Shown: positions 22,020 through 64,000 of the stretch, piece after piece
Position numbering within the stretch: the stretch's first letter is position 1
Layout: the number at the start of each line of letters is the position of its first letter
Source: Escherichia phage Baret
Length of the DNA: 64,000 nucleotides
Reading direction: 5' to 3' (one strand)
Sequence record: OR896834.1
The notes under the pieces: model-generated
Seen by the model: the letters and a program-made list of their open reading frames with translations, nothing else
Database searches by the model: none
Told to the model about the DNA's origin: nothing
Translations under genes and position numbers: made by a program

Positions 22020-22094
22020 CGGGGTGTAGTCTAAGGGATAGGCAGGAGTCTTCTAAATTCCTTTATGCAGGTTCGAATCCTGTCACCTCGGCCA
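22020..22094 (+). tRNA. tRNA-Arg (anticodon TCT)
   Basis: Hand-folded: 7-bp acceptor, anticodon loop CTTCTAA, T-arm GCAGG-TTCGAAT-CCTGT, encoded CCA. Confidence 0.8.
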
Positions 22095-22128
22095 ATTTTA
22101 TTAACTGTAACTAAAACAAAGGAAATAT

Positions 22129-23076
22129 ATGTTTAATACTAAAAATATGAAAGAACTAACTTCTGAGCAGAAAGTAATTCGTACTATTAAACGTTGGGGG
22201 ATTGGTGCTGTAGTTGGTTTAGCAGGTTTAATCCTAGCTTTTAATTCATATACTATTGTTTCTGATGGTACGGTTAAAACCCAAACATTTCTTGGTAAAG
22301 TAGATCCTAACCCAGTATTACCTGGTTTCCATCCTGTAAACCCATTTGCATCTTTCGATACTTTTAGTACAAAAGATATTGCTGTAAAATTAGATAAACT
22401 TCAGGTTCCTAGCCAGGATAAGTTTAAATCCACTGTTGACCTGACTGTTATGTTGCAGTTTGATGGTTCTAAGGCACCGATTAACCGTATTAATGCAGGT
22501 ACTCAGGATCAAGCATTAGACAAATATGTAACTGAAAAATTACTGTCTACTATTCGTGAGTTTGGTAAGTCTGTACCTAAAGCACAAGATTTATTTGATG
22601 CTAAAATTCAGGCTCAATTGCAAACTGCAATTCAACAGGAAGTTGAAGAGTATGCACGCCCATATGGCTACACAGTTAAGCAGGTGTTTCTTCAGGATAT
22701 TACTTTGCCACCAGTAATCATGGAACAGGTACAGAATACCAAAGTTCGTGAAGAGCAAGTTAATGCTGCAAAAGCTGAACTGGCTCGCGTTGAACAAGAA
22801 GCTCAGCAGAAAGTTAAACAAGCAGAAGCAGACCGTGAAGCTCGTAATAACCAAGCTATTGCTAACGAACGCGACGCAGATGCTAAACTGTATGCAGCTA
22901 AGAAAGAAGCTGAAGCTAACGCCGCGCTGCAACGTACCATTACTCCTGAGATGATTCGCTGGAAGCAACTAGAAGTTGAAATGATTCGTGCTCAGAAGTA
23001 TCAAGGTGGTGTACCGCAGACTGTGGTTGGCACTGGTTACGATGGCCAGATGATTATGGATATGCGTAATAAGTAA
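22129..23076 (+). CDS. SPFH/band-7 (stomatin/prohibitin-like) membrane protein
   Basis: 315 aa; N-terminal TM helix, SPFH-like core, long Ala/Glu/Gln-rich coiled coil. Confidence 0.65.
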   Translation: MFNTKNMKELTSEQKVIRTIKRWGIGAVVGLAGLILAFNSYTIVSDGTVKTQTFLGKVDPNPVLPGFHPVNPFASFDTFSTKDIAVKLDKLQVPSQDKFKSTVDLTVMLQFDGSKAPINRINAGTQDQALDKYVTEKLLSTIREFGKSVPKAQDLFDAKIQAQLQTAIQQEVEEYARPYGYTVKQVFLQDITLPPVIMEQVQNTKVREEQVNAAKAELARVEQEAQQKVKQAEADREARNNQAIANERDADAKLYAAKKEAEANAALQRTITPEMIRWKQLEVEMIRAQKYQGGVPQTVVGTGYDGQMIMDMRNK

Positions 23077-23100
23077 TATCCACGCGTAATATTCGAAGTA

Positions 23101-23133
23101 AGCCCTGTGTTTCCTGGAGAGCGCAGGGCTTTT
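23101..23133 (+). terminator. intrinsic terminator after SPFH gene
   Basis: AGCCCTG...CAGGGCT hairpin followed by TTTT. Confidence 0.6.
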
Positions 23134-23173
23134 CTGTATAATGTATTTATACAACTAACTAGGGGATCAAATA

Positions 23174-23692
23174 ATGACTGTTGATGAACTAACAGAACAT
23201 CTCTTATCTAGAGGGTTTGATACAGATAAATATCACTGCTGGCTAAGCCCAGAAGGATGGCTAACAGTCCCATTGTATGACTTCTCTGGGATGTTGAGAG
23301 GCTATCAGACTTATAATCCTTCTGCTCCAAAAGGTCATGGTAAATGCCCCTTTGAAGCTAGATATTTTACTTATTCTACTACACAGTGTGTATGGGGACT
23401 AGAAACTCTCAATGGAGACGAAAAAGTAGTATTGATTGCTGAATCTGTATTTAAGGCAGTTGCGTTACATAACGCTGGTTATCCAGCCCTGGCAATGTTG
23501 GGTTCTTCCCCCGGAAAAGCGTTGTTAAAGCAATTGAAATTACTACCTTTTAAATTGGTAGCTGTTGGGGATAATGATCCTGCTGGTGAAAAATTTGCTA
23601 GACAATTAAATGGATTTGTTTCTCCTGTAGATGTGGATGAGATGTCTACCGAAAACTTGAAAAATTTTCTTGCTATGAAGCTAAATTTCTAA
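23174..23692 (+). CDS. Toprim-domain protein (172 aa)
   Basis: VVLIAESVFKAV...LVAVGDNDPAGEKFA matches Toprim E...DxD core. Confidence 0.5.
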   Translation: MTVDELTEHLLSRGFDTDKYHCWLSPEGWLTVPLYDFSGMLRGYQTYNPSAPKGHGKCPFEARYFTYSTTQCVWGLETLNGDEKVVLIAESVFKAVALHNAGYPALAMLGSSPGKALLKQLKLLPFKLVAVGDNDPAGEKFARQLNGFVSPVDVDEMSTENLKNFLAMKLNF

Positions 23693-23698
23693 TATAAT
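23670..23698 (+). promoter_or_regulatory. early promoter driving tRNA genes
   Basis: -35 23670-23675, -10 23693-23698; overlaps 3' end of Toprim ORF. Confidence 0.55.
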
Positions 23699-23712
23699 AT
23701 ATTTATAAATTC

Positions 23713-23801
23713 GGAAGAATAGCATAACGGTATTGCAGCAGATTGCTAATCTGTCGGTTTGAAATATAGCCTTGTGGGTTCGATTCCCACTTCTTCCGCC
23801 A
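23713..23801 (+). tRNA. tRNA-Ser (anticodon GCT)
   Basis: Acceptor GGAAGAA/TTCTTCC, loop TTGCTAA, long variable arm, T-arm GTGGG-TTCGATT-CCCAC, CCA. Confidence 0.8.
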
Positions 23802-23807
23802 AATTCT

Positions 23808-23885
23808 GGTTCTCAAGCTCATATGGTATGAGCACCCGGCTCATAACCGGAAGGTACGTAGGTTCGAATCCTCGGGGAGCCACCA
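23808..23885 (+). tRNA. tRNA with CAT anticodon (Met/fMet/Ile2 type)
   Basis: 7-bp acceptor (2 GU), D-stem GCTC/GAGC, loop CTCATAA, CCA; T-stem imperfect. Confidence 0.6.
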
Positions 23886-24101
23886 ACTTAATTAGGGGAT
23901 TACAAGTGGAATTATACATAGTTTATGTTGTGTTTATTCAAGATAGAGAATACCCTGATGAATATAAAAAAGGATATAGGTTAGCCAGAGCTACTTCTGA
24001 AGCCCAAGCTATGGATAAAGTGGCAGATTATATGCTTACAGTAGAAAACGTACACTACATCGACTACCTTGAAGCCTCAAAAGTAATTGACTAAACTACA
24101 C

Positions 24102-24178
24102 GGGGGTGTAATCGAATTGGCATAGGTACTGGACTTAAAATTCAGGTTTTGTGGGTTCGAATCCCACCACCCCTACCA
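24102..24178 (+). tRNA. tRNA-like gene, anticodon loop CTTAAAA (TAA, Leu-type) with short variable loop
   Basis: 7-bp acceptor, AC stem CTGGA/TTCAG, T-arm GTGGG-TTCGAAT-CCCAC, CCA; type-I architecture unusual for Leu. Confidence 0.55.
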
Positions 24179-24353
24179 AATTAAGGAAATAAGATGTATA
24201 GACACCCACCTCCGCCAACACGTCGTTCTAGAGAAGTTATCCTCATGGAATTGACTAAAAACTTCAAGGCAACTCTTGAGGATAGAGATTTAGGCACGGA
24301 TGAAGACATTGATTTTATTTGTAGACTATTAAAGATGAAACTGGAGAAACAAC

Positions 24354-24560
24354 ATGGCTAATCCTGAAATTACCATGCAACGATTCATGGCTAAAGGCAT
24401 GATAGCTGAGGCAGGCATTGAACAAGAAGTAAAAAGTTATTACGAACAGATTAAGGGTATTGTAGACTCGGCTAAAAACACCGGAGAAAAAGAACATGGT
24501 GCGGCAATTATGGCTATAACTCTTATTAGTCTAGACTTGGCCGAAGAATCTGGAGTTTAG
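24354..24560 (+). CDS. hypothetical protein (68 aa)
   Basis: ORF track. Confidence 0.35.
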   Translation: MANPEITMQRFMAKGMIAEAGIEQEVKSYYEQIKGIVDSAKNTGEKEHGAAIMAITLISLDLAEESGV

Positions 24561-24590
24561 CTCCTCCAAACAGAATTTTTAAAAATGTAC

Positions 24591-24620
24591 TTGCCTTTTG
24601 CCTTAAATTTCTGATATAAT
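24591..24620 (+). promoter_or_regulatory. early promoter (TTGCCT-18-TATAAT)
   Basis: -35 24591-24596, -10 24615-24620. Confidence 0.55.
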
Positions 24621-24650
24621 AATTATATAAATTGATGGAGGAGTTAACGA

Positions 24651-24926
24651 ATGCAAAATCGTGTTGTAGCAACTGGTATTGAAAGTGCAATCTGTAAATC
24701 CTGGGAAGGCTGGGAAGGTGAGATTGAATGGCTTTATTTCTATGATGTAGAACTTCTACCGGAAGTTAAAGCTAAATGTATTGAAGCTGGCATGGCTCCA
24801 GATGCAAAAGCTGATATTGATATTTTAATGTCTGAACTTAAAGGTCGTGTAGTTACCGTTAGTAATGAGGGCGAAGAAGTTTTCGAACTTCCATTTTCCT
24901 TAACTGTCACTCCTAAGTTCGACTAA
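24651..24926 (+). CDS. hypothetical protein (91 aa)
   Basis: ORF track; SD GGAGGAG. Confidence 0.45.
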   Translation: MQNRVVATGIESAICKSWEGWEGEIEWLYFYDVELLPEVKAKCIEAGMAPDAKADIDILMSELKGRVVTVSNEGEEVFELPFSLTVTPKFD

Positions 24927-24962
24927 CTAATACAGCACTGAGCAAGTTCTTTAAAATTTGAC

Positions 24963-24991
24963 TTGCTCAGTGCCTTAAAACTTGATATAAT
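24963..24991 (+). promoter_or_regulatory. early promoter driving tRNA genes
   Basis: -35 TTGCTC 24963-24968, -10 TATAAT 24986-24991. Confidence 0.55.
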
Positions 24992-25007
24992 AGTTATCTA
25001 ATTCGGA

Positions 25008-25057
25008 AACATATTTAAAAGTGTTTAAACTAGTATTTGAATACTTTTAAATATGTT
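25008..25057. repeat. 14-bp inverted repeat between promoter and tRNA-Tyr
   Basis: AACATATTTAAAAG ... CTTTTAAATATGTT, arms ~22 nt apart. Confidence 0.6.
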
Positions 25058-25145
25058 GGATTAGTATCGTAGAGGTAGCGAAGCAGACTGTAAATCTGCC
25101 GACTCGGAAGGGTCTCGGGTGGTTCGACTCCATCATCCAACACCA
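25055..25145 (+). tRNA. tRNA-Tyr (anticodon GTA)
   Basis: Acceptor GTTGGAT/ATCCAAC, AC stem GCAGA/TCTGC loop CTGTAAA, long variable arm, CCA. Confidence 0.85.
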
Positions 25146-25152
25146 AATTTAA

Positions 25153-25229
25153 GTCCTGTTAGACAAACTGGTAAAGTCACTACCCTTTCAAGGTAGGGTT
25201 TGCGGGTTCGATCCCCGCACAGGACGCCA
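25153..25229 (+). tRNA. tRNA-Glu (anticodon TTC)
   Basis: Acceptor GTCCTGT/ACAGGAC, AC stem CTACC/GGTAG loop CTTTCAA, T-arm GCGGG-TTCGATC-CCCGC, CCA. Confidence 0.85.
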
Positions 25230-25238
25230 ATTAATAAT

Positions 25239-25309
25239 TGGGGTACGCATAGGTTGCAAATGGGCCTCCAAAACCCATGAAAAGGTTTCGAATACCTTTA
25301 CCCCTGCCA
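25239..25309 (+). tRNA. tRNA-Trp (anticodon CCA), U1-U72 mismatch
   Basis: 6/7 acceptor pairs, loop CTCCAAA, T-arm AAGGT-TTCGAAT-ACCTT, CCA. Confidence 0.6.
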
Positions 25310-25315
25310 AAATTT

Positions 25316-25390
25316 GCACCTTTAGCTGAGATGGATTAGCGCTTGCCTGAAGAGCTTGAGAGGTTCGTTCGATACGAACAGGGTGCACCA
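25316..25390 (+). tRNA. atypical tRNA-like gene (possible Phe GAA; non-canonical T-arm)
   Basis: Acceptor GCACCTT/AGGGTGC pairs and CCA present, loop CTGAAGA possible, but T-arm does not fold canonically. Confidence 0.35.
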
Positions 25391-25407
25391 AATTGAAGGA
25401 GATGCTG

Positions 25408-25677
25408 ATGCATCCTGAAAACTTCTTTATTTACTGCGCGGATAAGTTGCTGAAACGTAGAATTAACAAAGTCTATCATTATCGTGTTAGTCAACAGCCT
25501 TATGTATACGCTTTTGACGGTGATCACATTTCATTAGAACAATTATCTTGTGATTACATGATATTGAAGAACTTTGACGAGACGAAGATCTCAAGCGTTC
25601 ACAATCGACAGAATCCATTAACGTGGAAATATAAGAAAAAGAAAGGCATCAAATTCTTAAAAAATGTAGTTGCTTAG
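25408..25677 (+). CDS. hypothetical protein (89 aa)
   Basis: ATG 25408 with AAGGAG 6 nt upstream; track TTG 25393 trimmed. Confidence 0.4.
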   Translation: MHPENFFIYCADKLLKRRINKVYHYRVSQQPYVYAFDGDHISLEQLSCDYMILKNFDETKISSVHNRQNPLTWKYKKKKGIKFLKNVVA

Positions 25678-25698
25678 TTTCCAAAAGTTCTGTATAAT
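25670..25698 (+). promoter_or_regulatory. early promoter (TTGCTT-17-TATAAT)
   Basis: -35 25670-25675, -10 25693-25698. Confidence 0.55.
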
Positions 25699-25727
25699 AA
25701 ATACATAAATTGAACTGGAGAAGCAAC

Positions 25728-25946
25728 ATGACAGAACAAGAATTGAATGAACGTAAGCTAGTAATGCTTCGCTTACTAAATATTTTCTCTGGTATGGACG
25801 GTGGTGGTGATTTCTTAAGACTTAAGGTATTTACAGAAACTGCCGAAGGTGATGCAATCTCTAGAGTTATTAGGAACATGGGAAGCCTGCTAGATGTGGC
25901 TGGAGTAGCTACTCAATACACCTTAGATAATCCTACTGGAGAATAA
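25728..25946 (+). CDS. hypothetical protein (72 aa)
   Basis: ATG 25728 with SD GGAGAAG. Confidence 0.4.
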   Translation: MTEQELNERKLVMLRLLNIFSGMDGGGDFLRLKVFTETAEGDAISRVIRNMGSLLDVAGVATQYTLDNPTGE

Positions 25947-26138
25947 ATGAGAAGATTAGTTAGATTTAAGTGTTGTAGTTCTGAACATATTTTCACACAT
26001 CTTCGTGAATTTAAAATGTGTGATTGTGGTAAATCAGGCTATGACTCTGGAAATGGGTTCTACACCCGTACTCTAGGGAACTTCAATGATTTAGAATTTG
26101 AAGATCTCGAAAAACAAGATAAACCGACCGTTGGCTGA
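25947..26138 (+). CDS. small Cys-rich (zinc-finger-like) protein
   Basis: 63 aa; CC...CDC cysteines; 3' end overlaps tRNA-Cys. Confidence 0.4.
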   Translation: MRRLVRFKCCSSEHIFTHLREFKMCDCGKSGYDSGNGFYTRTLGNFNDLEFEDLEKQDKPTVG

Positions 26139-26200
26139 ATGGCTTAGGCGAAGGATTGCAAATCCTTTTTATGTGAGTTCAAATCTCATGCGGTCGTCCA
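26125..26200 (+). tRNA. tRNA-Cys (anticodon GCA)
   Basis: Acceptor CGACCGT/GCGGTCG, AC stem AAGGA/TCCTT loop TTGCAAA, T-arm GTGAG-TTCAAAT-CTCAT, CCA. Confidence 0.8.
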
Positions 26201-26221
26201 AATTACTAAAGGAAAGAAGTA

Positions 26222-26740
26222 GTGCATACAAAAGTTTTTGATAGTTTGGTAAAGAAAGGCGTTGTTACTAACGAGCCCTTCTATATAACCGCAGAACTAA
26301 TCCAGAGATTTATGGAAGAATATATAAATCTTTCAGGAACCAATGGTAATACCAAAAAGAATACAAATACTATGTATTCGAGAAAACTTGCTGCACTTTC
26401 CTTTATAAAGTTTAAGCAGGAAAATAAACTTCCTATTTCTGAAGGTTTTGTATACTGTATTAGTAATCCTGCATGGAAAAATCAGTATAAAATAGGTATG
26501 AGTCAAAATCCAAAAGAGAGATTAGCTCAATATCAGACTTATTCCCCTTATAGGGATTATAAGTTAGAGCATTGGTCTTTTTGGTTTGACAAACGAAAAG
26601 GTGAAAAACTAATTCACCAGTATTTCAAAGATTTAAAAGAACATGAGTGGTTTAGTATAAATTCTAGGGATCTTAGTAAATATCTAGAACGTATTAACTC
26701 TAGTTCTGACTTATATGGTTCCTTAGCTCTAATTGGTTAG
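26222..26740 (+). CDS. T5orf172-type GIY-YIG-like nuclease-domain protein
   Basis: 172 aa; GFVYCISNP...YKIGMSQNPKER motif; true start may be internal Met; last ~24 nt overlap tRNA-Asn. Confidence 0.55.
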   Translation: MHTKVFDSLVKKGVVTNEPFYITAELIQRFMEEYINLSGTNGNTKKNTNTMYSRKLAALSFIKFKQENKLPISEGFVYCISNPAWKNQYKIGMSQNPKERLAQYQTYSPYRDYKLEHWSFWFDKRKGEKLIHQYFKDLKEHEWFSINSRDLSKYLERINSSSDLYGSLALIG

Positions 26741-26794
26741 AGCGGCATCTTGTTAAGTTGAGGGTTGCTGGTTCGAATCCAACAGGAACCGCCA
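26717..26794 (+). tRNA. tRNA-Asn (anticodon GTT)
   Basis: Acceptor GGTTCCT/AGGAACC, D-stem GCTC/GAGC, loop TTGTTAA, CCA; AC stem has 2 mismatches. Confidence 0.7.
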
Positions 26795-26896
26795 AATTCT
26801 GTGTAGAGTTAAGTAAACCGGTAGCCAACCAGCTATCATTGCTGACATCGAATTCAGCCATAGATACCATTTTCGTTAATAACTGAGGAAACAAGC

Positions 26897-27082
26897 ATGT
26901 CCAAGAATGTAATTGCGCAGCTAGAAGTTCATCGTGATAGCACTATCAACAATATTGAAGTTGAGAAGAAATACATAGAAGAACTTAAACATGATATACT
27001 GGTAAGTCTCAACCGTCTTAATGTACGAAAAGAGTTTCTTAAAGAACTTAATGCAGCTATTGAAAAACTCAAAGCTGAGTAA
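26897..27082 (+). CDS. hypothetical coiled-coil protein (61 aa)
   Basis: ORF track. Confidence 0.35.
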   Translation: MSKNVIAQLEVHRDSTINNIEVEKKYIEELKHDILVSLNRLNVRKEFLKELNAAIEKLKAE

Positions 27083-27091
27083 ATGAATTAT

Positions 27092-27168
27092 GCGACCGGG
27101 GCTGGCTTGGTAATGGTACTCCCCTGTCACGGGAGAGAATGTGGGTTCAAATCCCATCGGTCGCGCCA
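27092..27168 (+). tRNA. tRNA-Asp (anticodon GTC)
   Basis: Acceptor GCGACCG/CGGTCGC, AC stem CTCCC/GGGAG loop CTGTCAC, T-arm GTGGG-TTCAAAT-CCCAT, CCA. Confidence 0.85.
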
Positions 27169-27185
27169 AATAAGGTAGGTTAGCT

Positions 27186-27344
27186 ATGGAACGTAGGGAG
27201 TTTACTCCAGAAGAGATAGAGCAGATAAAAGAATCTGCTATGAAAAATGCTAGAATATCTCTGTCACTGGAAGGTATCATTATTAGTGATGTAAACTTTG
27301 AAAAAATCAAAGCCATAGCTGATGAACTGGAAAAAGTAATTTAA
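27186..27344 (+). CDS. hypothetical small protein (52 aa)
   Basis: ATG 27186 with SD AAGGTAGG; below ORF-track cut-off. Confidence 0.3.
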   Translation: MERREFTPEEIEQIKESAMKNARISLSLEGIIISDVNFEKIKAIADELEKVI

Positions 27345-27345
27345 T

Positions 27346-27421
27346 ACATCCATAGCTCAATGGTTAGAGCTACCGCCTCTTAAGCGGAGGGTTCTAGGTT
27401 CAAGTCCTAGTGGGTGTACCA
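27346..27421 (+). tRNA. tRNA-Lys (anticodon CTT)
   Basis: Acceptor ACATCCA/TGGGTGT, D-stem GCTC/GAGC, loop CTCTTAA, T-arm CTAGG-TTCAAGT-CCTAG, CCA. Confidence 0.75.
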
Positions 27422-27447
27422 AATTAAACTAGCACGAGAAATATGCT

Positions 27448-27795
27448 ATGATTAATGCTAAAGAAGAATTGTTACTTGCCCTAAAGAATACTAATTCTGA
27501 AGTTAAGTGTATTAAGATAGAATTCGGTTATTATGGGGATAAAGAAGTTTGGGTATTACCCGTAGGTTATACAGAAAAAGATATTGAAGATTTTCTAGAT
27601 AATCTAGACTTTAAATATGATTCTGGTTTCGGCGGACAATTGCTTTATGGTAACGTATGGTTTACCGATGGAACTTGGTTAGAACGTGGTGAATATGATG
27701 GTTCTGAATGGTGGGAATATAAGACTACACCAGCAATCCCAGAAGAATGCCGAACAATTAATGGTGAAGTAGATCGTACTTTACTATTAAATTAA
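27448..27795 (+). CDS. hypothetical protein (115 aa)
   Basis: ORF track. Confidence 0.45.
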   Translation: MINAKEELLLALKNTNSEVKCIKIEFGYYGDKEVWVLPVGYTEKDIEDFLDNLDFKYDSGFGGQLLYGNVWFTDGTWLERGEYDGSEWWEYKTTPAIPEECRTINGEVDRTLLLN

Positions 27796-28187
27796 CAAAA
27801 TTTCAGTGCAGAACACGGAGCTAGCAATTCGGAAGTGCTGACTCATGATAAGCTGCCTATGTACTTGCGAAGCGGTCGTGTCCAAGACTCGGACTCTTGC
27901 ACTGAAAACAATCAAACATTCTAGCGTGGTTGATGGGGAAACCAGCTTGGCGAGGGCAGAAGCTCGTTCGATTCGAGTGAAAGAATGGTTCTCGTAAGTC
28001 CGCACAAGTGATAACAGGTTCGAGTCCTGTCTAGAATGACACTATAAAGTTTACTTATTATGTAGGTTCCGATAGACCGGCGGGTCTATTCTGGCATTTA
28101 AGAGAGGTCTCGCAAACTTCTTTGTCAGCCGTGGGGTTGGTAGCCTCCAGGTGGCCTACACAATAAGTAAATTTATTAAAAATTCAT

Positions 28188-28216
28188 TTGCTATTCTGCT
28201 TTATTATCTGTATAAT
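28188..28216 (+). promoter_or_regulatory. early promoter (TTGCTA-17-TATAAT)
   Basis: -35 28188-28193, -10 28211-28216. Confidence 0.6.
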
Positions 28217-28248
28217 ATATTTTATAAAGTGAAGAGAAGGAAAGCAAA

Positions 28249-28407
28249 ATGAAACACAAGATAGCTCAAGTTTTTATGGCATTATGGTGTATACCAATAG
28301 CTATAACAGCATTTAATCTAGATACTTTTACTATAGAAGAAAAATGTATCGGATTAGTTAGCGGTTTTAGTATGCTGGGCTTATCTTTGCTGTGGTTAAA
28401 GAAATAA
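28249..28407 (+). CDS. small hydrophobic membrane protein (52 aa)
   Basis: ATG 28249 with SD GAAGGAAAG after promoter; below ORF-track cut-off. Confidence 0.35.
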   Translation: MKHKIAQVFMALWCIPIAITAFNLDTFTIEEKCIGLVSGFSMLGLSLLWLKK

Positions 28408-28411
28408 TATT

Positions 28412-28489
28412 CTCCGTGTAGCTCAGTTTGGCCAGAGCGTTTCGTTTGGGGCGATAGGGTCGGGGGTTCAAATCCTCCCACGGAGACCA
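28412..28489 (+). tRNA. tRNA-Pro (anticodon TGG)
   Basis: Acceptor CTCCGTG/CACGGAG, D-stem GCTC/GAGC, loop TTTGGGG, T-arm GGGGG-TTCAAAT-CCTCC, CCA. Confidence 0.8.
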
Positions 28490-28495
28490 AACAAT

Positions 28496-28573
28496 TGCGG
28501 GTTAGATCTCTGGTAGAGATCGCTAGTCTCATAAGCTAGAAAGAGGTAGGTTCGATTCCTGCACCCGCTTCCA
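28496..28573 (+). tRNA. tRNA with CAT anticodon (Met/Ile2 type), U1-U72 mismatch
   Basis: D-stem GATC/GATC, AC stem CTAGT/GCTAG loop CTCATAA, T-arm GTAGG-TTCGATT-CCTGC, CCA. Confidence 0.7.
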
Positions 28574-28593
28574 CTTTAATAGAGGATTTCGAA

Positions 28594-28761
28594 ATGAAAG
28601 TATTTCGATTAGTAGTAAGTGACAAACGTTTAGGTAAGAATACCTCAAAATCCTTACTTGCTCATTATGGAAAAGATGAGAAAGAAGTAATGGCGGAGTT
28701 TGGGATTAATCACCCTTACTTGAAAGTTCACTCTATTAAAGAAGTATATAATGGTTACTAA
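28594..28761 (+). CDS. hypothetical small protein (55 aa)
   Basis: ATG 28594; between tRNAs; below ORF-track cut-off. Confidence 0.3.
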   Translation: MKVFRLVVSDKRLGKNTSKSLLAHYGKDEKEVMAEFGINHPYLKVHSIKEVYNGY

Positions 28762-28762
28762 T

Positions 28763-28841
28763 AGATCGCTAGCTCAATAGGTTTAGTAGCATCCGACTTT
28801 TAATCGGAAGGTTCTGGGTTCGAGTCCCAGGCGATCTACCA
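28763..28841 (+). tRNA. tRNA-Lys (anticodon TTT)
   Basis: Acceptor AGATCGC/GCGATCT, AC stem TCCGA/TCGGA loop CTTTTAA, T-arm CTGGG-TTCGAGT-CCCAG, CCA. Confidence 0.85.
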
Positions 28842-28859
28842 ATTTCAAGAAAAACGCAG

Positions 28860-28888
28860 TTGCTTGATGCTTAATTTCTTGTTATAAT
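28860..28888 (+). promoter_or_regulatory. early promoter followed by non-coding leader then tRNA-Ala
   Basis: -35 TTGCTT 28860-28865, -10 TATAAT 28883-28888. Confidence 0.6.
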
Positions 28889-29126
28889 ATTTATATAAAT
28901 TGATGAGGATTTCTCCTCATCATAGTTCACTAAGGTATTAGCTCGACCTAGGACTGGCTGCCAAAAAGCACGATCCCTACGATTCGGGAGGAGTTCTAGA
29001 TTAGTCCACTAGATTCAGCGGCAACTGAATAGTGTATTGGGTTTGCGAGATGACGCGGTTCCTTCCGCTCGAAGCGAAGGTGCTGTAGTTACGCCGAGCT
29101 AATAGCCTTAGTAAACTAAAGAATTT

Positions 29127-29205
29127 GGGGGATGGGTCTGCTAGGGGTGGACACCTCGCTTGCACCGAGGACATCAGAACGATTCGAATTCGTTATCCTC
29201 CACCA
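29127..29205 (+). tRNA. tRNA-Ala (anticodon TGC)
   Basis: Acceptor GGGGGAT/ATCCTCC, AC stem CCTCG/CGAGG loop CTTGCAC, T-arm AACGA-TTCGAAT-TCGTT, CCA. Confidence 0.7.
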
Positions 29206-29210
29206 AATAC

Positions 29211-29287
29211 GCGTGATTGATGGAATTGGCATACATACCGTCCTTAGAAGTCGGGTTTTGAGGGTTCGAATCCCTTGTCACGCACCA
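29211..29287 (+). tRNA. tRNA-like gene, anticodon loop CTTAGAA (TAG, Leu-type) with short variable loop
   Basis: Acceptor GCGTGAT/GTCACGC, T-arm GAGGG-TTCGAAT-CCCTT, CCA; type-I architecture unusual for Leu. Confidence 0.55.
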
Positions 29288-29412
29288 AATTTGATGGTCA
29301 GAGTAAATTAAACCTACTATCTCGGTTGAGCTGTTTTAATGGGTTCGAATCCCAGCGAGGCGTAACTGCCTGGTGTGATAGAGGCATCATTCCACTAACA
29401 TTGGAAAAACTA

Positions 29413-29643
29413 ATGAAACGAAAATTAAAAAAGTCTTATATAATTAAGATAAATAAGCTACGAAGTAGGGCAAAAGGATGGCCACTTCGAATATTAATTG
29501 CGGATAACCATACTAGATACCATGCGGAACAACGTCATTACAAACAGTGGGAGTCATACTGCCGCTCAAAAGCAGGTCGTTTAGATGGATCTTATGAGTT
29601 TCTATTTGGTAAGAAGCCTACTAGAGTAGCTTTAGGTAATTAA
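29413..29643 (+). CDS. hypothetical basic protein (76 aa)
   Basis: Internal ATG of track ORF 29275-29643, whose 5' part overlaps tRNA sequence. Confidence 0.3.
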   Translation: MKRKLKKSYIIKINKLRSRAKGWPLRILIADNHTRYHAEQRHYKQWESYCRSKAGRLDGSYEFLFGKKPTRVALGN

Positions 29644-29648
29644 TACTT

Positions 29649-29739
29649 GGAAGAGCAAATCGAATTGGCGACGAAAACCGCTTGGAAAGTGGCTGACTGG
29701 TAAAACGGCTTGAGAGTTCAAATCTCTCCTCTTCCGCCA
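29649..29739 (+). tRNA. tRNA-Ser (anticodon GGA)
   Basis: Acceptor GGAAGAG/CTCTTCC, loop TTGGAAA, long variable arm, T-arm GAGAG-TTCAAAT-CTCTC, CCA. Confidence 0.75.
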
Positions 29740-29751
29740 AACAATTTATAT

Positions 29752-29846
29752 GGTAGGTCAATCCAACGGCTGGCGCTGGACTCCGACTTGAAATCGGTTG
29801 ATCGTAGTGATACGGTGTAAGGGTTCGATCCCCTTACCTACCTCCA
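29752..29846 (+). tRNA. tRNA-Ser (anticodon TGA)
   Basis: Acceptor GGTAGGT/ACCTACC, AC stem CCGA/TCGG loop CTTGAAA, long variable arm, T-arm AAGGG-TTCGATC-CCCTT, CCA. Confidence 0.75.
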
Positions 29847-29851
29847 AATCT

Positions 29852-29980
29852 TGGAATATGCCGGAATTGGTAGACGGGACTGCCGAATAGGTTTACTAGG
29901 AACATCCACTCCTAGAAATATACCTTAAAAGCGGTTGAGTTAAATGGTCTAACTCATGAAGGTTCAAGCCCTTCTATTCC
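29852..29980 (+). ncRNA. atypical ~127-nt tRNA-like RNA with Leu-type D-arm
   Basis: 5' TGGAATA + D-arm CCGG-AATTGGTAGA-CGGG, two extra hairpins, T-arm GAAGG-TTCAAGC-CCTTC and 3' TATTCCT pairing with the 5' end; no canonical anticodon arm. Confidence 0.3.
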
Positions 29981-30211
29981 TTGATACATCAATGGCTCAA
30001 AGTGTAACGGTGCTATTTGATGCTCTTGGAAAGACTTTCCCGACATGCGTTCGGGGGTAAGCTTCTGAGGCTAGAATAGAAGAGTTTCTGAGAGCCGCCA
30101 CAATTGAAAATTCGTACTCGTCTTGAGCTGCGTGCAATAGGAGATAACTTGATTAGTATTCTAGAACATGCTAATTGAGGATGGTTTCGCTAACCCTGCG
30201 AGTTTTCAATT

Positions 30212-30289
30212 GTGGCTATATCATAATTGGTTAATGATCCTGATTGTGAATCAGGCCTATGTGGATTCGAATTCCACTAGCCACCCCCA
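30212..30289 (+). tRNA. tRNA-His (anticodon GTG)
   Basis: Acceptor GTGGCTA/TAGCCAC, AC stem CCTGA/TCAGG loop TTGTGAA, T-arm GTGGA-TTCGAAT-TCCAC. Confidence 0.8.
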
Positions 30290-30314
30290 AATTAACTTAA
30301 ATAGGAAATAAAAT

Positions 30315-30509
30315 ATGGCTGATTTCTGCAAACAATGCTCCATTGATATGTGGGGCAGAGATACTGGTGATCTTTCTGGGCTGATTACAGAAGCCGAAGT
30401 CAAAGAAGGTTATGGTGCAGTTGTGGTTTGTGAAGGATGCGGAGTCATTCGAGTAGATCATGAGGGTAAGCGCCTTGAAGAATCTGAGCCAGTTACCCTA
30501 TTTCCCTAA
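30315..30509 (+). CDS. small zinc-ribbon-like protein (64 aa)
   Basis: ORF track; CKQC...CEGC cysteine pairs. Confidence 0.4.
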   Translation: MADFCKQCSIDMWGRDTGDLSGLITEAEVKEGYGAVVVCEGCGVIRVDHEGKRLEESEPVTLFP

Positions 30510-30522
30510 AGTAAAGAATTAT

Positions 30523-30598
30523 TGGGATGTAGATCAATTGGCAGATCGTCGGCCTCTGACTCCGAAGGTTCCACGTTCGATCCGTGGCATCCCAGCCA
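30523..30598 (+). tRNA. tRNA-Gln (anticodon CTG)
   Basis: Acceptor TGGGATG/CATCCCA, D-stem GATC/GATC, loop CTCTGAC, T-arm CCACG-TTCGATC-CGTGG, CCA. Confidence 0.75.
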
Positions 30599-30604
30599 AA
30601 TACT

Positions 30605-30680
30605 TGGAGAGTAGTGTAACGGTTAGCACAACGGCCTTTGACTCCGTTAATGGTAGGTTCGATTCCTCCTTCTCCAGCCA
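30605..30680 (+). tRNA. tRNA-Gln (anticodon TTG)
   Basis: Acceptor TGGAGAG/TTCTCCA, D-stem GTGT/GCAC, loop CTTTGAC, CCA. Confidence 0.75.
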
Positions 30681-30687
30681 AATTAAT

Positions 30688-30762
30688 GCGTGATTAGTTC
30701 AGTGGCTAGAATAACTGGCTTCCAACCAGTAGACACGAGTTCGACTCTCGTATCCCGCACCA
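30688..30762 (+). tRNA. tRNA-Gly (anticodon TCC)
   Basis: AC stem ACTGG/CCAGT loop CTTCCAA, T-arm ACGAG-TTCGACT-CTCGT, CCA; one acceptor mismatch. Confidence 0.8.
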
Positions 30763-30776
30763 AATAAGGAAACACT

Positions 30777-31028
30777 ATGCACGTTTTTGAGTTTCGTAAT
30801 AAAAGTACTGATAAGCGAGTTATCATTATTGGAGAAACATATCGAGCATATGAACAAACTGATGGCTCTGTTATCTTGAATGATGAGAAAGGAGGTTTTA
30901 GCTTTTATCCAGAAGAACCTTATGAAGAGTTTCGAAAACAATTTAACCTAGACTGGAGAAAGCATTTAAACACTGTTGCTTCATCTGTAGTATTGCCAAC
31001 TACCAGTACTGTACTCTCTAATGGCTGA
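30777..31028 (+). CDS. hypothetical protein (83 aa)
   Basis: ORF track; SD AAGGAAAC. Confidence 0.4.
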   Translation: MHVFEFRNKSTDKRVIIIGETYRAYEQTDGSVILNDEKGGFSFYPEEPYEEFRKQFNLDWRKHLNTVASSVVLPTTSTVLSNG

Positions 31029-31187
31029 CAACCTAAAAGTAAAGATTGATAAACAAAAGAAACGTGTAGAAGTAGAGATTGGTGAAGAACGTGTTGCCTT
31101 TACTTTTGAATTTCTACAGCAAATGGCAATGGCAGTTATGACTGATAAGTCTCCTGTTATTGAAAAAGAAATCCCGTTGAAATAACG
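31023..31187 (+). CDS. hypothetical small protein (54 aa)
   Basis: ATG overlapping upstream stop (ATGGCTGA); below ORF-track cut-off. Confidence 0.3.
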
Positions 31188-31195
31188 GGATCATC

Positions 31196-31270
31196 GCTCC
31201 TAAAGCATTGCTGGCGATGCAGTTGCCTTGTAAGCATCTGAACCGGGTTCGATTCCTGGTGGGAGCACCA
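31196..31270 (+). tRNA. tRNA-Thr (anticodon TGT)
   Basis: Acceptor GCTCCTA/TGGGAGC, D-stem GCAT/ATGC, loop CTTGTAA, T-arm CCGGG-TTCGATT-CCTGG, CCA. Confidence 0.8.
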
Positions 31271-31285
31271 AATTTAAAAATTCAT

Positions 31286-31314
31286 TTGCCTTCTCTCTTA
31301 TTTATTGTTATAAT
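31286..31314 (+). promoter_or_regulatory. early promoter (TTGCCT-17-TATAAT)
   Basis: -35 31286-31291, -10 31309-31314. Confidence 0.6.
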
Positions 31315-31344
31315 ATTCATATAAATTAATGAGAGGGAAACCAA

Positions 31345-31635
31345 ATGAAACGTTATCTTTCTATTGTATTCCAAACTGGTGGTCAAAGATATACCTATGA
31401 ATTTCCATCTTCTTGGAAAATCAAAGAAGGTGATCAAGTAGTAGTGTTAACACCGCGTGAAGGGTATAAAGTAGTAATGGTTAAACAAGTATTCCCAAAA
31501 GATCATGAACCAGCTAAAGGCATTCGCTATAAGATGATTCATGGTGTGGTCCGTCAAGTACCACGAACTGAGGTAGAAGTAGATAAGACTGGAGAAACTA
31601 AATTCCATTATACTTCTTACTTAGATAGTGTGTGA
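31345..31635 (+). CDS. hypothetical protein (96 aa)
   Basis: ORF track; SD GAGAGGGAAAC. Confidence 0.45.
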   Translation: MKRYLSIVFQTGGQRYTYEFPSSWKIKEGDQVVVLTPREGYKVVMVKQVFPKDHEPAKGIRYKMIHGVVRQVPRTEVEVDKTGETKFHYTSYLDSV

Positions 31636-31650
31636 TGTAAATATTCTAAT

Positions 31651-31727
31651 ACTTCGGTAGCTTAGCGATCTAAAGCACCCGGCTGATAACCGAGAGATCG
31701 GGGGTTTAAATCCCTCCCGGAGTACCA
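31651..31727 (+). tRNA. tRNA-Ile (anticodon GAT)
   Basis: Acceptor ACTTCGG/CCGGAGT, D-stem GCTT/AAGC, loop CTGATAA, T-arm GGGGG-TTTAAAT-CCCTC (variant T-loop), CCA. Confidence 0.8.
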
Positions 31728-31826
31728 AATTTAGGAATTAAGACTATGCGTCCAGGAAAGTTTAAAAAAGCTAATTGGTCTAAAGAGTATAAAGAATACT
31801 TACTTAGTCTAGTAAAACATAACAGT

Positions 31827-31902
31827 TAGTTGGCAGAGTGGTTATGCACCTCCTTCATACGGAGCGACTACAGTGGTTCAAATCCACTACTAACTACCAT
31901 TA
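31827..31902 (+). tRNA. tRNA with CAT anticodon (Met/fMet/Ile2 type)
   Basis: Acceptor AGTTAGT/ACTAACT, loop TTCATAC, T-arm AGTGG-TTCAAAT-CCACT, CCA. Confidence 0.7.
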
Positions 31903-59679: not shown

Positions 59680-60414
59680 ATGAATAAAGCTATCATGAAT
59701 CTTTCCCGCAGCTTCCCGCATATTTCCCGCGTCATGATTTGGGATTTAGACGGCACTATCATTAATTCTTTCCATCGTGTAGCACCCTGCTTTGATAGCG
59801 AGGGCAATTTAGATTTAAATAAGTATAAAAATGAAGCGTGTAAACACCATTTAATAATGCAAGATACTTTATTGCCATTGGTTGAATATATGCGCCAGTG
59901 CATGAATGACGCAAATACTTTAAACATTATTTGCACCGCTCGACTGATGAGTAAGTCGGACTATTATTTCTTGCGTAAACAAGGGTTGCGCGGTCGTGGT
60001 AATAGTAATATCCGCGTATTTTCCCGCGATACACTACACAAATATTTTAAAGCTGATAAGGTTAGCGAAATATACCACAGCAAAGACGCAGTATATAAAT
60101 CTTATTATTTTGAATTATTTAAACAGTTATATCCTAACGCTGATTTTACAATGATTGATGATCATAAAGGCGTGCTATCAGCGGCAGCGTCATACGGATT
60201 TAAAACGCTGGACGCACAAGCCGTTAATGATATTCTATCAATCGGCGTGGCATTGATAGGTGAAACCTTTATTGATGAATCTCTCGACGATGATAATGAT
60301 TATCAATTCCTAGCTGACCGTTTAAAATTATGCTGGGAAGGTATGACCGAGGAAGAACGCGCAGAATATAGTTGCAGTCCTCAACAATATATTGAGAAAT
60401 TAAAAGTTGCCTAA
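59680..60414 (+). CDS. dmp: 5'-deoxyribonucleotidase (HAD family)
   Basis: 244 aa; N-terminal MIWDLDGTI HAD motif I. Confidence 0.8.
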   Translation: MNKAIMNLSRSFPHISRVMIWDLDGTIINSFHRVAPCFDSEGNLDLNKYKNEACKHHLIMQDTLLPLVEYMRQCMNDANTLNIICTARLMSKSDYYFLRKQGLRGRGNSNIRVFSRDTLHKYFKADKVSEIYHSKDAVYKSYYFELFKQLYPNADFTMIDDHKGVLSAAASYGFKTLDAQAVNDILSIGVALIGETFIDESLDDDNDYQFLADRLKLCWEGMTEEERAEYSCSPQQYIEKLKVA

Positions 60415-60566: not shown

Positions 60567-60812
60567 TTAGCGCATAGAAGGGTCATCAAACCTGTATTCT
60601 GGTCTGAACTCACGGAATCTCTTCCGCGACGCCCGAGATCCATCCGACCACTCCCGCTCAAACTCCGCACGTTTCTCGTCAAACTTCCGCTCCCTTTCCG
60701 CAATCTCCCTCGTCACTCCCGCAATATATTTACGATGCTTATTGATTGCCGCAGTCGTCCCGAAAACTCCCGCGAGTATCCCGATAATAAAAGCAATTAC
60801 AATACTAAACAT
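60567..60812 (-). CDS. hypothetical membrane protein (81 aa)
   Basis: ORF track; N-terminal TM helix then charged tail. Confidence 0.4.
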   Translation of the reverse strand: MFSIVIAFIIGILAGVFGTTAAINKHRKYIAGVTREIAERERKFDEKRAEFEREWSDGSRASRKRFREFRPEYRFDDPSMR

Positions 60813-60999
60813 CTAATTCCCTCTCAATTTGCAGAATACGGGTACTATCACAGCGTTGAAGCTCTACTAATTTTTCTAGTGCAAATTGTTGCTGCTTTAC
60901 CTGGGCCTCTAGAGTTTTTAGGCGAACATACGCGGTATAAGAAACAATGAAAATTGCCCAGATTAATATTACTATTAATGTAGCTGCCACTTCCATCAT
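60805..60999 (-). CDS. hypothetical membrane protein (64 aa)
   Basis: ORF track; N-terminal TM helix. Confidence 0.4.
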   Translation of the reverse strand: MMEVAATLIVILIWAIFIVSYTAYVRLKTLEAQVKQQQFALEKLVELQRCDSTRILQIERELDV

Positions 61000-61398
61000 T
61001 TACGTTTCTCCAGCAATAAAGTTTCAATTCTAGCTAAGTGATTATCTAAAATACATTGCCCAATAATCACAATCCCTAATAGTGCAATAATTACCCATTC
61101 CATTAAATCCACCCCGCCATAGCTGCTAACCAAAAACCTACGAAAATAAAGAATAGGAGAGTTCCGAACCCAAAACTATTTATCCAACTCTCATACACCT
61201 CTCCGCGTCTATTATTTCTTTTGTTTGACATATCTTTCGTGCTCCCATAAATGTGATATTTTAAAATATATGCATAACCAACCGTGCTTGTGGACTCCTA
61301 GAAGGACTTCTACTTTTCTTACATAGTGGTTTCTGCCAATATACCATCCAAGAAATAAAAAATTTAGTTTACTTGGATGTCTTTTTGTTTTATACTAA

Positions 61399-61665
61399 TT
61401 ACAGGTAATTAGATTGCTCTAGTTTAAATTTACAATCACCATATTTAAGGTCAAACTGACTGAGATCCCACCACCCAAATTTAGTACGGAGCTGTACTAC
61501 TGGAAAGCGATCTCCCTTAATACGAACTTTTTGAACCTTGAGACCGTAATGTTCTTCTCCCGCACCACCAAAAGATTTTACAAATCCCGTACAAAATGGT
61601 TTGGGAGCAGGTGCACAACCAGATAACATAATTGTGGCAACTAGTGCAATTACAAACTTTTTCAT
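61399..61665 (-). CDS. llp: Llp-like receptor-blocking lipoprotein
   Basis: 88 aa; signal peptide with lipobox LSGC; divergent from receptor-binding protein gene; early-type promoter upstream. Confidence 0.65.
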   Translation of the reverse strand: MKKFVIALVATIMLSGCAPAPKPFCTGFVKSFGGAGEEHYGLKVQKVRIKGDRFPVVQLRTKFGWWDLSQFDLKYGDCKFKLEQSNYL

Positions 61666-61696
61666 ATTTATCTCTCCATTTCTAATTTATGAATTT

Positions 61697-61725
61697 ATTA
61701 TAGCAAAATAGAGGGATGAAAGCAA
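61697..61725 (-). promoter_or_regulatory. early-type promoter for llp (TTGCTT-17-TATAAT on minus strand)
   Basis: minus-strand -35 at 61720-61725, -10 at 61697-61702, followed by CATAAATT box. Confidence 0.6.
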
Positions 61726-61750
61726 ATACATTTTTATAATAGGAGATTAT

Positions 61751-63508
61751 ATGGGTTTTTTCGCTGGAAAGTATAGCGATGGTAAGACCGTACTATCTTT
61801 AAATACTGAATCTGGGGGTGACATTAATCGTCACTATAGCCCAAATAATAATAGTATTTTTCATAGTGATATGCCATTTGTCCTAGTTGATGGTACTTAT
61901 GAGGCAGGATTAGGTGATGCCGGGAATGGGTTTTTCGTATGTCAGATGCCTCCTGATATAGTAAATATTAAATCTAATGATCCTGGTAGAGTTATACTAA
62001 CTGCTATTGAGATTAATGGTACTCACAGAGCTTTTCTTAATGGTACTCAGAGTAAAGTTGGTCAAACTATAGTTGCCACTCAAGCAGACCCCTTTAGATC
62101 TTTTGCTAGTGTTTCTCAAACCAGTGGATTTGCATTTGGTAATAGTCTAGCATCTGGAACTTATAATTATAACCCATCGATAGGGCACGAAGAATCTATC
62201 TCTAGGAGTGGTACAGGCGGTACTACGTTACATAGTACCTACCATGGGATAGTTAGGCCTGGTGCGGGAGCTCCTGTAGGTGTTACTGTTGCAGAAGCTT
62301 TTGCACAATTAGGGTTCCCTACTAACAGTAGCACAGTACCTGTAGATGGCAATAACCCGTACTATTGGGATCCTGGATGGATGTCACCCCTAGGAGCAGC
62401 GCATAGAGGGCATGATTGGTTTTATGTCTGCAATTCTAATATACGTGGGTACGGTGGGGTTAGACAAGGGCTCCCAGGTAATGTAAATACTATGTACCAC
62501 GATGGTGGGGATAGATTTGTTTGTAGGGGATCTACTACTAATTTAGCTAACCAGTCTGGTAATTCTACAATACTACAGGATGGATATAATATAACTCCTA
62601 CTAAGGTTATTTGGTATGTTCTTAACTTAAGGTACTCGAATGGCGGTATGAGTATTTCCGGCAACCCCTTTACGGGTTCTGATATTCTTATATCTCCTTC
62701 TAATTTTATAATTAAAGGGGTAAGTCTCCCTAATACCGGGTATAAATTTATAAATCAGAATGCTTTTGGTAACCTAGGTTACCGTCCTGATATGGAGTAT
62801 ATAGGGAATAACGCAGCGTATACTGGAGTTTTTGGGGATACCACTGCAAGGTGTGAACTTGTAGGATCTAGTAATGGGGGTTTGTGGTCTCCTGTAGATT
62901 ATGGAGGGGCTAAATCTCAAATTAGTATTTATAAATTTGGGGCAGGTAAACAATGGTATGTAAACTCAAATAATAATACTATTGGTAATGAACATGGGGT
63001 TGTTTGGGGACCCTCAGCAGTTCCACTGCGACTTTTTGGTGGAAATGTAGGTAGTTCTTATATGGGAGATGATATTACTCCCAGCTACCCAGGAACTGGG
63101 GATAGATACGTTGGTTTATCCACTATTGGGCTAGGTATACCGGGTGGCAATGCTACAGTAATTCTTACCACTGAAGTTATATCAGGTAACCTTAACTGTG
63201 CAGGTGTTCCTGCTAATACATGGAATAACGGTGTGTTTCAAGTGCAAGGAAGAAGAGCATATAGCTATAGTAATGGAGATGCAATATTCCACCAGATTTT
63301 AACATTACCAGTAGGGTATTTAGTACCTTTTCATACTACATCTGCTTTTAGGTACACACCTAACAATGCCCTAAGTAGAAATAGTTTTATATATACTGCT
63401 AAAAATCTGGGGAATGGAAATGTAGAGTTAGGGGTAGTTATGCACGTAAGTTTAGGTAGTGCAGTTTTCCTACCGAGATTAAGAGTAACAGTTCAACGCC
63501 TTACCTAA
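61751..63508 (+). CDS. receptor-binding tail protein (pb5/Oad-like)
   Basis: 585 aa; N-terminal M-G-FFAGK and C-terminal ...VQRLT resemble what I recall of T5 pb5; Gly/Asn/Thr-rich; adjacent divergent llp. Confidence 0.6.
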
Positions 63509-63518
63509 AGGAGGAAAT

Positions 63519-64000
63519 ATGGCAAATGATGTATTAGTACCAGATCTTATGTCCCCTGAAGGGATGGATGTAATTGAAGCATATTTACAGTGTGGCAGCG
63601 ATGTGCCTTCTGCCGCACGTAGTCTTGGGATGTCCGAAATTGCTTTTCGAGATATTATGAATCGTAGTGAAGTTAAGAACTACTTAAATGATATTTTTAT
63701 GGAGAGTGGTTTCCGTAACAGAGATCGTTTATTTGGTGTTCTGGATGAAGTTATCAAGTGTAAACTAGAGGAACTAGAAGAAACTGGCATGGGTTCTGAC
63801 CAAGATATTATGGATATTCTCTGGAAAGCACATAAAATGAAAATGGAAGAAATGAAAATGATGGTAGAACTGGAGAAAGTGAAGGCAGCAGCCCGTACTC
63901 CAGCTAACCAGACCAACATCCAGAATAATATTATTGCTGGAGCTGGGGATCAAAACTACATGGACTTAATTACTTCCCTAGCTACTGGAGGTAAGAAGTA
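63519..64000 (+). CDS. terminase small subunit-like protein, partial (runs past window end)
   Basis: Open from ATG 63519 to window end; helix-turn-helix-like [17 protein letters not shown]; not in ORF track because no stop in window. Confidence 0.5.

Follow-up and report, generated by a model that had tools for sequence, protein, structure and literature searches.

A probable BtuB-type receptor-binding and superinfection-exclusion gene pair in the Tequintavirus Escherichia phage Baret

Organization of the locus

We analyzed a stretch of 64,000 nucleotides from Escherichia phage Baret (sequence record OR896834.1), hereafter called the window, which carries two divergent genes. The first, llp (61399..61665, minus strand), encodes an 88-amino-acid (aa) prolipoprotein that is, by homology, a receptor-blocking superinfection-exclusion lipoprotein. 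The second (61751..63508, plus strand) encodes a receptor-binding protein (RBP) of 585 aa, a homologue of T5 pb5 (gene oad/hrs) and, by identity, a BtuB-type allele. The 85 bp between them (61666..61750) form a divergent control region. The coordinates of both open reading frames agreed exactly with those of an earlier reading of the same sequence (the original prediction). Homologues of each gene are held by about 400 to 540 phage records, which indicates that both are genuine genes and not chance open reading frames. The terminase small subunit gene (terS; 63520..64000, plus strand) starts at 63520 and runs past the window end, so that the RBP gene occupies its canonical place, immediately upstream of terS/terL. 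The order llp (minus), RBP gene (plus), terS (plus) was the same in the records of T5, BF23, DT571/2, KS_S14, and IrisVonRoten. The window as a whole belongs to a Tequintavirus genome; a comparison over 25 kb put its identity to PMBT29 and mar004NP2 at about 96%. It contains the tRNA cluster usual for Tequintavirus (22 genes, at 22 to 32 kb). BLAST gave no usable match in the window to the BF23 terminal-repeat boundary.

Read on the minus strand toward llp, the spacer has the form ...TATAAAAATGTAT-TTGCTT-(17 nt)-TG-C-TATAAT-AAATTCATAAATTAGAAAT-GGAGAG-ATAAAT-ATG. The llp promoter consists of a -35 hexamer TTGCTT (61725..61720), a 17-nt spacer, and a TG-extended -10 hexamer (61702..61697) that is a perfect TATAAT; an A-rich tract lies upstream of the -35 element (AAAAATGTAT-TTGCTT-17 nt-TG-C-TATAAT). 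By sequence reading, the ribosome-binding site of llp is GGAGAG (61677..61672, minus strand). In a spacer alignment with T5, BF23, DT571/2, EPS7, and phiR2-01, the -35 and -10 elements and the downstream ATAAATTA were conserved, and the promoter layout matched all five spacers column for column. Moreover, the records of T5 and BF23 mark divergent promoters in this spacer, and the llp promoter is annotated among them. Strong early promoters of T5, PN25 among them, typically combine TTGCTT/TATAAT with A-rich sequence upstream and ATAAATT downstream. The early-type promoter that had been ascribed to the lipoprotein gene is present in the spacer as a T5-early-type promoter, conserved with the annotated llp promoter of T5. 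It was recognized by sequence reading and by conservation with T5 and BF23; a generic sigma-70 scan flagged nothing within these 85 bp, and the number of sites did not exceed that in shuffled sequences. The scan missed the llp promoter because TTGCTT agrees with TTGACA at only three of six positions. On the plus strand, the RBP gene is preceded by a ribosome-binding site, AGGAG (61741..61745), again from sequence reading, and no promoter of its own was identified for this gene in the 85-bp spacer. A plus-strand TATAAT (61735..61740) is unlikely to serve it, since this hexamer abuts the ribosome-binding site.

Family and probable receptor of the 585-aa tail protein

The RBP is rich in glycine (14.0%) and asparagine (9.2%), as had been noted before, and serine makes up a further 8.9%. 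Its N terminus (MGFFAGK...) resembles that of T5 pb5 (MSFFAGK...), and its C terminus matches the pb5 end ...IKLIIQRLT; the conserved ends of the pb5/Hrs family of Markadamsvirinae tail-tip proteins, MxFFAGK and QRLT, are thus both present, in agreement with the original prediction that the termini recall pb5. The length given there for pb5, about 640 aa, was also correct (640 aa in both M62847 and NC_005859). Pfam and NCBIfam held no model for the RBP. Conversely, the PHROG families were informative: the protein matched phrog_4815, annotated as receptor binding tail protein, over residues 1 to 585 (E = 1e-273). BLASTP aligned it with T5 pb5 from end to end at 30% identity (E = 1e-56), and the only significant structures in the PDB were the pb5 chains 8b14_B and 8a8c_B (E = 3e-50).

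To place the protein within this family, we compared it with pb5 and with RBPs of the BF23/DT57C type, the alignment that the original prediction had proposed. At 30% identity to pb5 the allele is indeed different from that of T5, whereas identity reached 74% with the 586-aa RBP of DT57C/DT571-2 and 67% with the 595-aa RBP of BF23 (record OR083247). The RBP was also about 69% identical to that of EPS7 and 55% identical to that of Yersinia phage phiR2-01. BF23, DT57C/DT571-2, EPS7, and phiR2-01 have all been reported as BtuB users. By these pairwise identities, the RBP sits in the BF23/DT57C (BtuB) clade, apart from RBPs of the FhuA and FepA types.

The allele itself is common. In a tblastn search, an RBP of the same length and 95 to 99% identity was encoded in about 100 phage records, including KS_S14 (99.0%), SPLA5b, mar004NP2, and SIA3lw (98.8%), PMBT29 (98.6%), phiAPCEc03 (98.5%), IrisVonRoten (98.1%), chee24, the pork27 group, and phiLLS (97.4%), Cit2 (97.3%), and DaisyDussoix (97.1%). 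Over the whole module (61300-63560), relatives with the 585-aa allele were 93 to 97.5% identical in DNA. In SPLA5b, vB_Eco_mar004NP2, KS_S14, Bas32, Bas31, chee24/pork27, phiLLS, and Cit2, the RBP is equally long and the module shares gene order, spacer, and Llp with the window, and the RBPs of such relatives differ from that of the window by point substitutions only, 6 to 16 per 585 aa. The SPLA5b and Bas32 proteins differ from it at 7 to 11 residues.

Several phages with this allele have been assigned a receptor experimentally. For SPLA5b, TraDIS identified btuB as a susceptibility gene, and deletion of btuB in S. Typhimurium ST4/74 abolished plaque formation (PMC10949491). The terminal receptor of the BASEL phages DaisyDussoix (Bas31) and IrisVonRoten (Bas32) is listed as BtuB, in E. 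coli K-12 (PMC8594841 supplement), and IrisVonRoten is termed BtuB-dependent in a later paper. In the case of DT57C, mutations in btuB confer resistance (PMC4728585). An outer-membrane receptor other than that of T5 had been suggested as a possibility, and this suggestion is supported by the 97 to 99% identity between the RBP of the window and those of btuB-dependent phages. Judged by this identity, the RBP almost certainly binds the vitamin B12 transporter BtuB.

This assignment conflicts with a published statement about Cit2. In a 2026 in-silico analysis, the one opposing claim that we found, the RBP of Cit2 was stated to be 96.9% identical to that of T5 (NC_005859) and to cluster with T5, and FhuA was inferred as its receptor (PMC12980165). 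On this view the 585-aa allele would bind FhuA, as T5 pb5 does, and the BtuB-type Llp would be "decoupled" from its RBP. However, when the RBP of Cit2 was aligned directly with the pb5 of NC_005859 by BLASTP, identity was 30%, the same figure as for the RBP of the window. Furthermore, the values given for Cit2 in the same study, 66.7% to BF23 and 73.2% to DT57C (PMC12980165), agree with the BtuB clade. We considered whether the RefSeq T5 entry might carry the 585-aa allele and so be the source of the 96.9% figure, and rejected this explanation, as NC_005859 encodes a 640-aa pb5. Given the direct comparison and the content of NC_005859, the FhuA assignment of Cit2 looks like an error; as a by-product of our analysis, the percentage on which it was based could not be reproduced when the two proteins were compared directly. 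Since phages carrying the 585-aa allele depend on btuB, binding to FhuA is very improbable.

A second alternative to BtuB is another or additional terminal receptor, such as FepA or a second TonB-dependent transporter, used by the phage of the window or on some hosts. SIA3lw, whose RBP is 98.8% identical, does not infect S. Typhimurium, although SPLA5b does, and its authors speculate that it uses a different receptor on S. Infantis. In addition, two residues of the RBP of the window, D254 and G278, occurred in none of the six close relatives examined, G278 being common to DT57C. Nevertheless, when T5-like phages differ in host range, the cause normally lies in the lateral tail fibres and in O-antigen shielding and not in the RBP, and the FepA-type RBPs of H8 and S124 are reported to be only about 28% identical to the 585-aa allele (PMC12980165). 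The mature Llp encoded next to the RBP gene is, moreover, identical to a BtuB blocker, as described below. We therefore regard a different or additional receptor as improbable, if somewhat less so than FhuA, and retain BtuB as the receptor of this allele.

The Llp lipoprotein as a probable exclusion factor

The translation of the llp open reading frame on the minus strand begins MKKFVIALVATIMLSGCAPAPKPF..., and the N terminus of the protein (MKKFVIALVATIMLSGC...) contains the lipobox L-S-G-C. The signal peptide, of the Sec/SPII type, spans aa 1 to 16, and the lipidated cysteine is Cys17 (codon at 61617..61615, minus strand), followed by an alanine at position +2; the mature part has 72 aa. The lipobox LSGC had been read in the same way before, and the Pfam model LPAM_1 supports it above its curated cutoff (23 bits versus 20; E = 1e-4). 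Apart from this lipid-attachment site, no family in Pfam or NCBIfam matched Llp. Its match to phrog_1119, annotated as Cor superinfection exclusion protein, was strong both for the full protein (E = 1.6e-25) and for the mature part (E = 2.6e-16, profile positions 17 to 78). The mature T5 Llp matches the same family (E = 1.4e-11).

Comparison with BtuB-specific phages was more direct. The mature Llp was 100% identical to those of BF23, DT571/2, and IrisVonRoten, all differences being confined to the signal peptide, and the mature product of DT57C llp has this sequence as well. When cloned, DT57C llp lowered the plating of BF23 and of phages of the DT57C group by a factor of more than 100, whereas T5 plated as before (PMC4728585). 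The Llp of BF23 has been reported to block BtuB (Mondigler et al. 2006, as cited in PMC4728585). These identities bear out the earlier suggestion that the lipoprotein is the exclusion factor matching the RBP, for its mature part is that of the cloned DT57C gene product that excludes BF23.

By sequence, the relation to the structurally solved Llp of T5 is remote. BLASTP found 28% identity over 67 aa (E = 2e-4), in a stretch that takes in the signal peptide, and hhalign gave no significant match (E = 0.18) between mature T5 Llp and a mature Llp profile built from only three sequences. When Llp was searched by sequence against the PDB, only chance matches appeared, for instance ovomucoid and the TrwH signal peptide. 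As the pairwise and thin-profile comparisons were not significant, it is phrog_1119 alone that argues for homology and a common fold. The cysteines of the two proteins can be set side by side. Besides the lipidated residue, the mature Llp has cysteines at positions 9 and 62, which were invariant in the three BtuB-type Llp sequences aligned; Cys62 aligns with Cys58 of T5 Llp, and Cys9 lies two residues from Cys11. In T5 Llp, a Cys11-Cys58 disulphide ties together the termini of the mature protein (PMC9586334).

The lack of a direct sequence match to a solved structure, together with the bare lipid-attachment site returned by Pfam and NCBIfam, could be taken to mean that Llp is not an exclusion factor at all and is instead a lipoprotein with a part in lysis, or else a remnant that has been conserved, whose adjacency to the RBP gene is only historical. 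Against this stands the identity of its mature part to the cloned protein that excludes BF23 and the DT57C-group phages. Llp was also kept at 95 to 99% identity in 180 phage records, even where the RBP had diverged to about 70%, which points to purifying selection on a receptor-directed function, and its early-type promoter was conserved. A role unrelated to exclusion is thus the least credible of the alternatives, with hardly any probability left to it. Together, the RBP and Llp very probably constitute the T5-like (Tequintavirus) pair for host recognition and superinfection exclusion in its BtuB-specific form, an assignment drawn from sequence comparison.

Divergence of the module and a model for binding and exclusion

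Across the module, DNA identity to BF23 and DT571/2 fell from 96 to 99% in llp to 53 to 80% in the RBP gene and rose again to 92 to 96% in terS. OSYSP and GSP044 pair a 97% identical Llp with an RBP of 71 to 72% identity, and the 180 records with an Llp at 95 to 99% compare with only about 100 that have an RBP at that level. As published, the RBP gene thus acts like a cassette that diverges while its flanks stay conserved: exchange inside the module is known, and the recombination point has been placed between hrs and llp (Golomidova et al., PMC4728585). Such exchange of the RBP would be tolerated, since BtuB remains the target of all the partners.

The systems already described differ from the window to unequal extents. 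Beyond the relatives with the 585-aa allele, they include DT57C/DT571-2, with a 586-aa Hrs and an Llp whose mature part is identical. The alignment with their RBP, at 74% identity, contains one indel of 1 aa, the differences (26% of residues) being concentrated at aa 181-270, 361-405, and 451-495; BtuB was shown genetically to be the receptor. BF23, the prototype of the BtuB-specific T5-like modules, shares the architecture, the identical mature Llp, and the receptor class, and its flanks (llp and terS) are 92 to 98% identical in DNA to those of the window. Its RBP, however, is only 67% identical, drops to 42 to 57% over aa 91-270, and has seven extra residues at the position matching pb5 loop L4. 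T5 (pb5/Oad of 640 aa plus Llp) shows homology over the full length of the RBP and has the same termini, genomic position, divergent llp, and promoter layout, and its Llp falls into phrog_1119 like that of the window. In contrast to the window, T5 has an RBP that is 30% identical and 55 residues longer, mostly in loop regions, uses FhuA, and is not excluded by the DT57C Llp.

To locate the divergence within the RBP, we used binned identities and an indel map of the allele alignment. The most variable part is about aa 100-290 (62048..62620, plus strand); in the comparison with BF23, identity recovered to 77 to 93% at aa 271-450. A second indel hot spot lies at about aa 530-545 (63338..63385, plus strand). 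All indels between RBP alleles fell at window residues of about 115, 172, 252, and 539. In T5, pb5 inserts four loops, L1 (tip Gln115), L2 (tip Phe170), L3, and L4 (570-590), into FhuA's extracellular lumen (PMC9586334). Residue 114 of the window RBP aligns with the L1 tip, residue 172 with the L2 tip, and about aa 530-545 with L4, where T5 has 21 extra residues relative to the window and DT571/2 has 1. Three of the four indel positions (about 115, 172, and 539) therefore align with loops L1, L2, and L4. As judged from the alignments, this pattern of divergence and indels fits loop insertion with fast-evolving contact residues.

The structures of FhuA-pb5 (8A8C, 8B14) and FhuA-Llp served as the template for a possible mechanism; we found no structure of BtuB with an RBP or with Llp, and the binding mode is accordingly extrapolated from FhuA. 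T5 Llp acts from the periplasm, on the FhuA plug, and leaves extracellular loops EL7 and EL8 folded inward so that pb5 cannot bind, a "reverse allostery" that has been proposed for other TonB-dependent transporters as well; in the same study, AlphaFold2 predicted the pb5 loops with low confidence and gave an inaccurate model of Llp (PMC9586334). By analogy, the RBP would be present as a single copy on the end of the central tail fibre, and its variable loops would be pushed into the extracellular lumen of BtuB. Irreversible binding to BtuB would then lead to opening of the tail tip and DNA ejection. Soon after infection, llp would be expressed from its T5-early-type sigma-70 promoter, and Llp, once exported and lipidated at Cys17, would be attached to the outer membrane on its periplasmic side. 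Its most likely partner there is BtuB: Llp would contact the plug and the periplasmic face of the transporter and draw extracellular loops inward, blocking docking of the RBP. Such a block would prevent superinfection and keep progeny from being wasted on the debris of lysed cells. Both parts of this model, binding of the RBP by loop insertion and "reverse allostery" exerted on BtuB by Llp from the periplasm, are conditional on the analogy with FhuA.

The BtuB-type alleles (585, 586, and 595 aa) are 67 to 74% identical, and their differences and indels lie where T5 pb5 inserts its loops. This raises the tentative possibility, which we hold to be doubtful though far from negligible, that these alleles dock on different sets of BtuB surface loops and that one invariant Llp excludes all of them, since its target is the conserved plug, reached from the periplasm. 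If true, this would make the module a natural test of "reverse allostery" on a second TonB-dependent transporter, and it would explain how the RBP gene can be swapped alone by recombination, with llp left in place. The idea is not specific to the window and applies to any of the roughly 100 phages with this allele.

The allele is common and its receptor already assigned, so that the module holds no novelty: it adds one more copy of an already characterized pair and has little importance beyond annotation. For annotation, both genes can be named with confidence, one as a BtuB-type receptor-binding tail-tip protein and the other as a BtuB-blocking Llp lipoprotein. BtuB is thereby predictable as the terminal receptor of the phage, which helps in the design of phage cocktails and in anticipating btuB escape mutants.

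Layout of the genome end

The window carries 22 clustered tRNA genes (22020-31899), all on the plus strand, a feature typical of T5-like phages. A 244-aa ORF, also on the plus strand (59680-60414), occupies the position of the T5 gene dmp, which codes for a 5'-deoxynucleotidase. In both T5 and BF23, dmp belongs to the terminal repeat, which suggests that the window was assembled in reverse complement with its terminal repeat collapsed. In such an assembly, repeat DNA seems to pass directly into the genome end that carries llp (the superinfection-exclusion lipoprotein gene), the receptor-binding protein (RBP) gene and the terminase. BLAST mapping did not locate the boundary of the terminal repeat in the window.

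Downstream of llp and on the same minus strand, we found four small ORFs of 81, 64, 45 and 42 aa (60567-61231), all of which contain hydrophobic stretches. They sit where T5.159-T5.162 are annotated in T5 ("contains single transmembrane domain"), and four small genes are annotated at the matching position in BF23, DT571/2 and IrisVonRoten.

The RBP gene as a divergent cassette

In the interval 61400-63650, a divergent RBP gene is embedded as a cassette in conserved flanking DNA. Nucleotide identity to the counterparts in BF23 and DT571/2 amounts to 96-99% for llp, drops to 53-80% within the RBP gene and recovers to 92-96% for the terminase small subunit gene terS. An Llp 97% identical to that of the window is combined with an RBP of 71-72% identity in many phages, OSYSP and GSP044 among them. 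Residues D254 (nt 62510-62512) and G278 (nt 62582-62584) of the window RBP are N254 and W278 in six close relatives (KS_S14, IrisVonRoten, Cit2, PMBT29, mar004NP2 and FGS017), and G278 is shared with the RBP of DT57C. Both residues map to the variable part of the protein, presumably its receptor-facing side.

Database records and the receptor of Cit2

T5-like RBP genes were also present in OR846838 (Listeria phage LM 4-11-1), MG065642 (Campylobacter phage A148) and PQ773600 (Corynebacterium phage CPphiVTCCBPA_418), the proteins being 98.1%, 67.6% and 28.0% identical to the window RBP, respectively. All three records are named for non-enterobacterial hosts and most likely reflect contamination or mislabelling. 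In KY677846 (phiLLS) and MT653146 (8sent1748), the 585-aa RBP gene is labelled "super-infection exclusion protein", which looks like an annotation displaced from the adjoining llp gene.

A previous report claimed 96.9% identity between the RBPs of Cit2 and T5 and inferred FhuA as the Cit2 receptor (PMC12980165). We compared the Cit2 RBP (585 aa; 952-2706 in the OP745948 locus) with the T5 RBP (640 aa; 4431-6350 in the NC_005859 locus) by direct BLASTP, which gave 30% identity. Because the Cit2 RBP is 97.3% identical to the BtuB-type RBP of the window, the published FhuA inference for Cit2 appears to be wrong.
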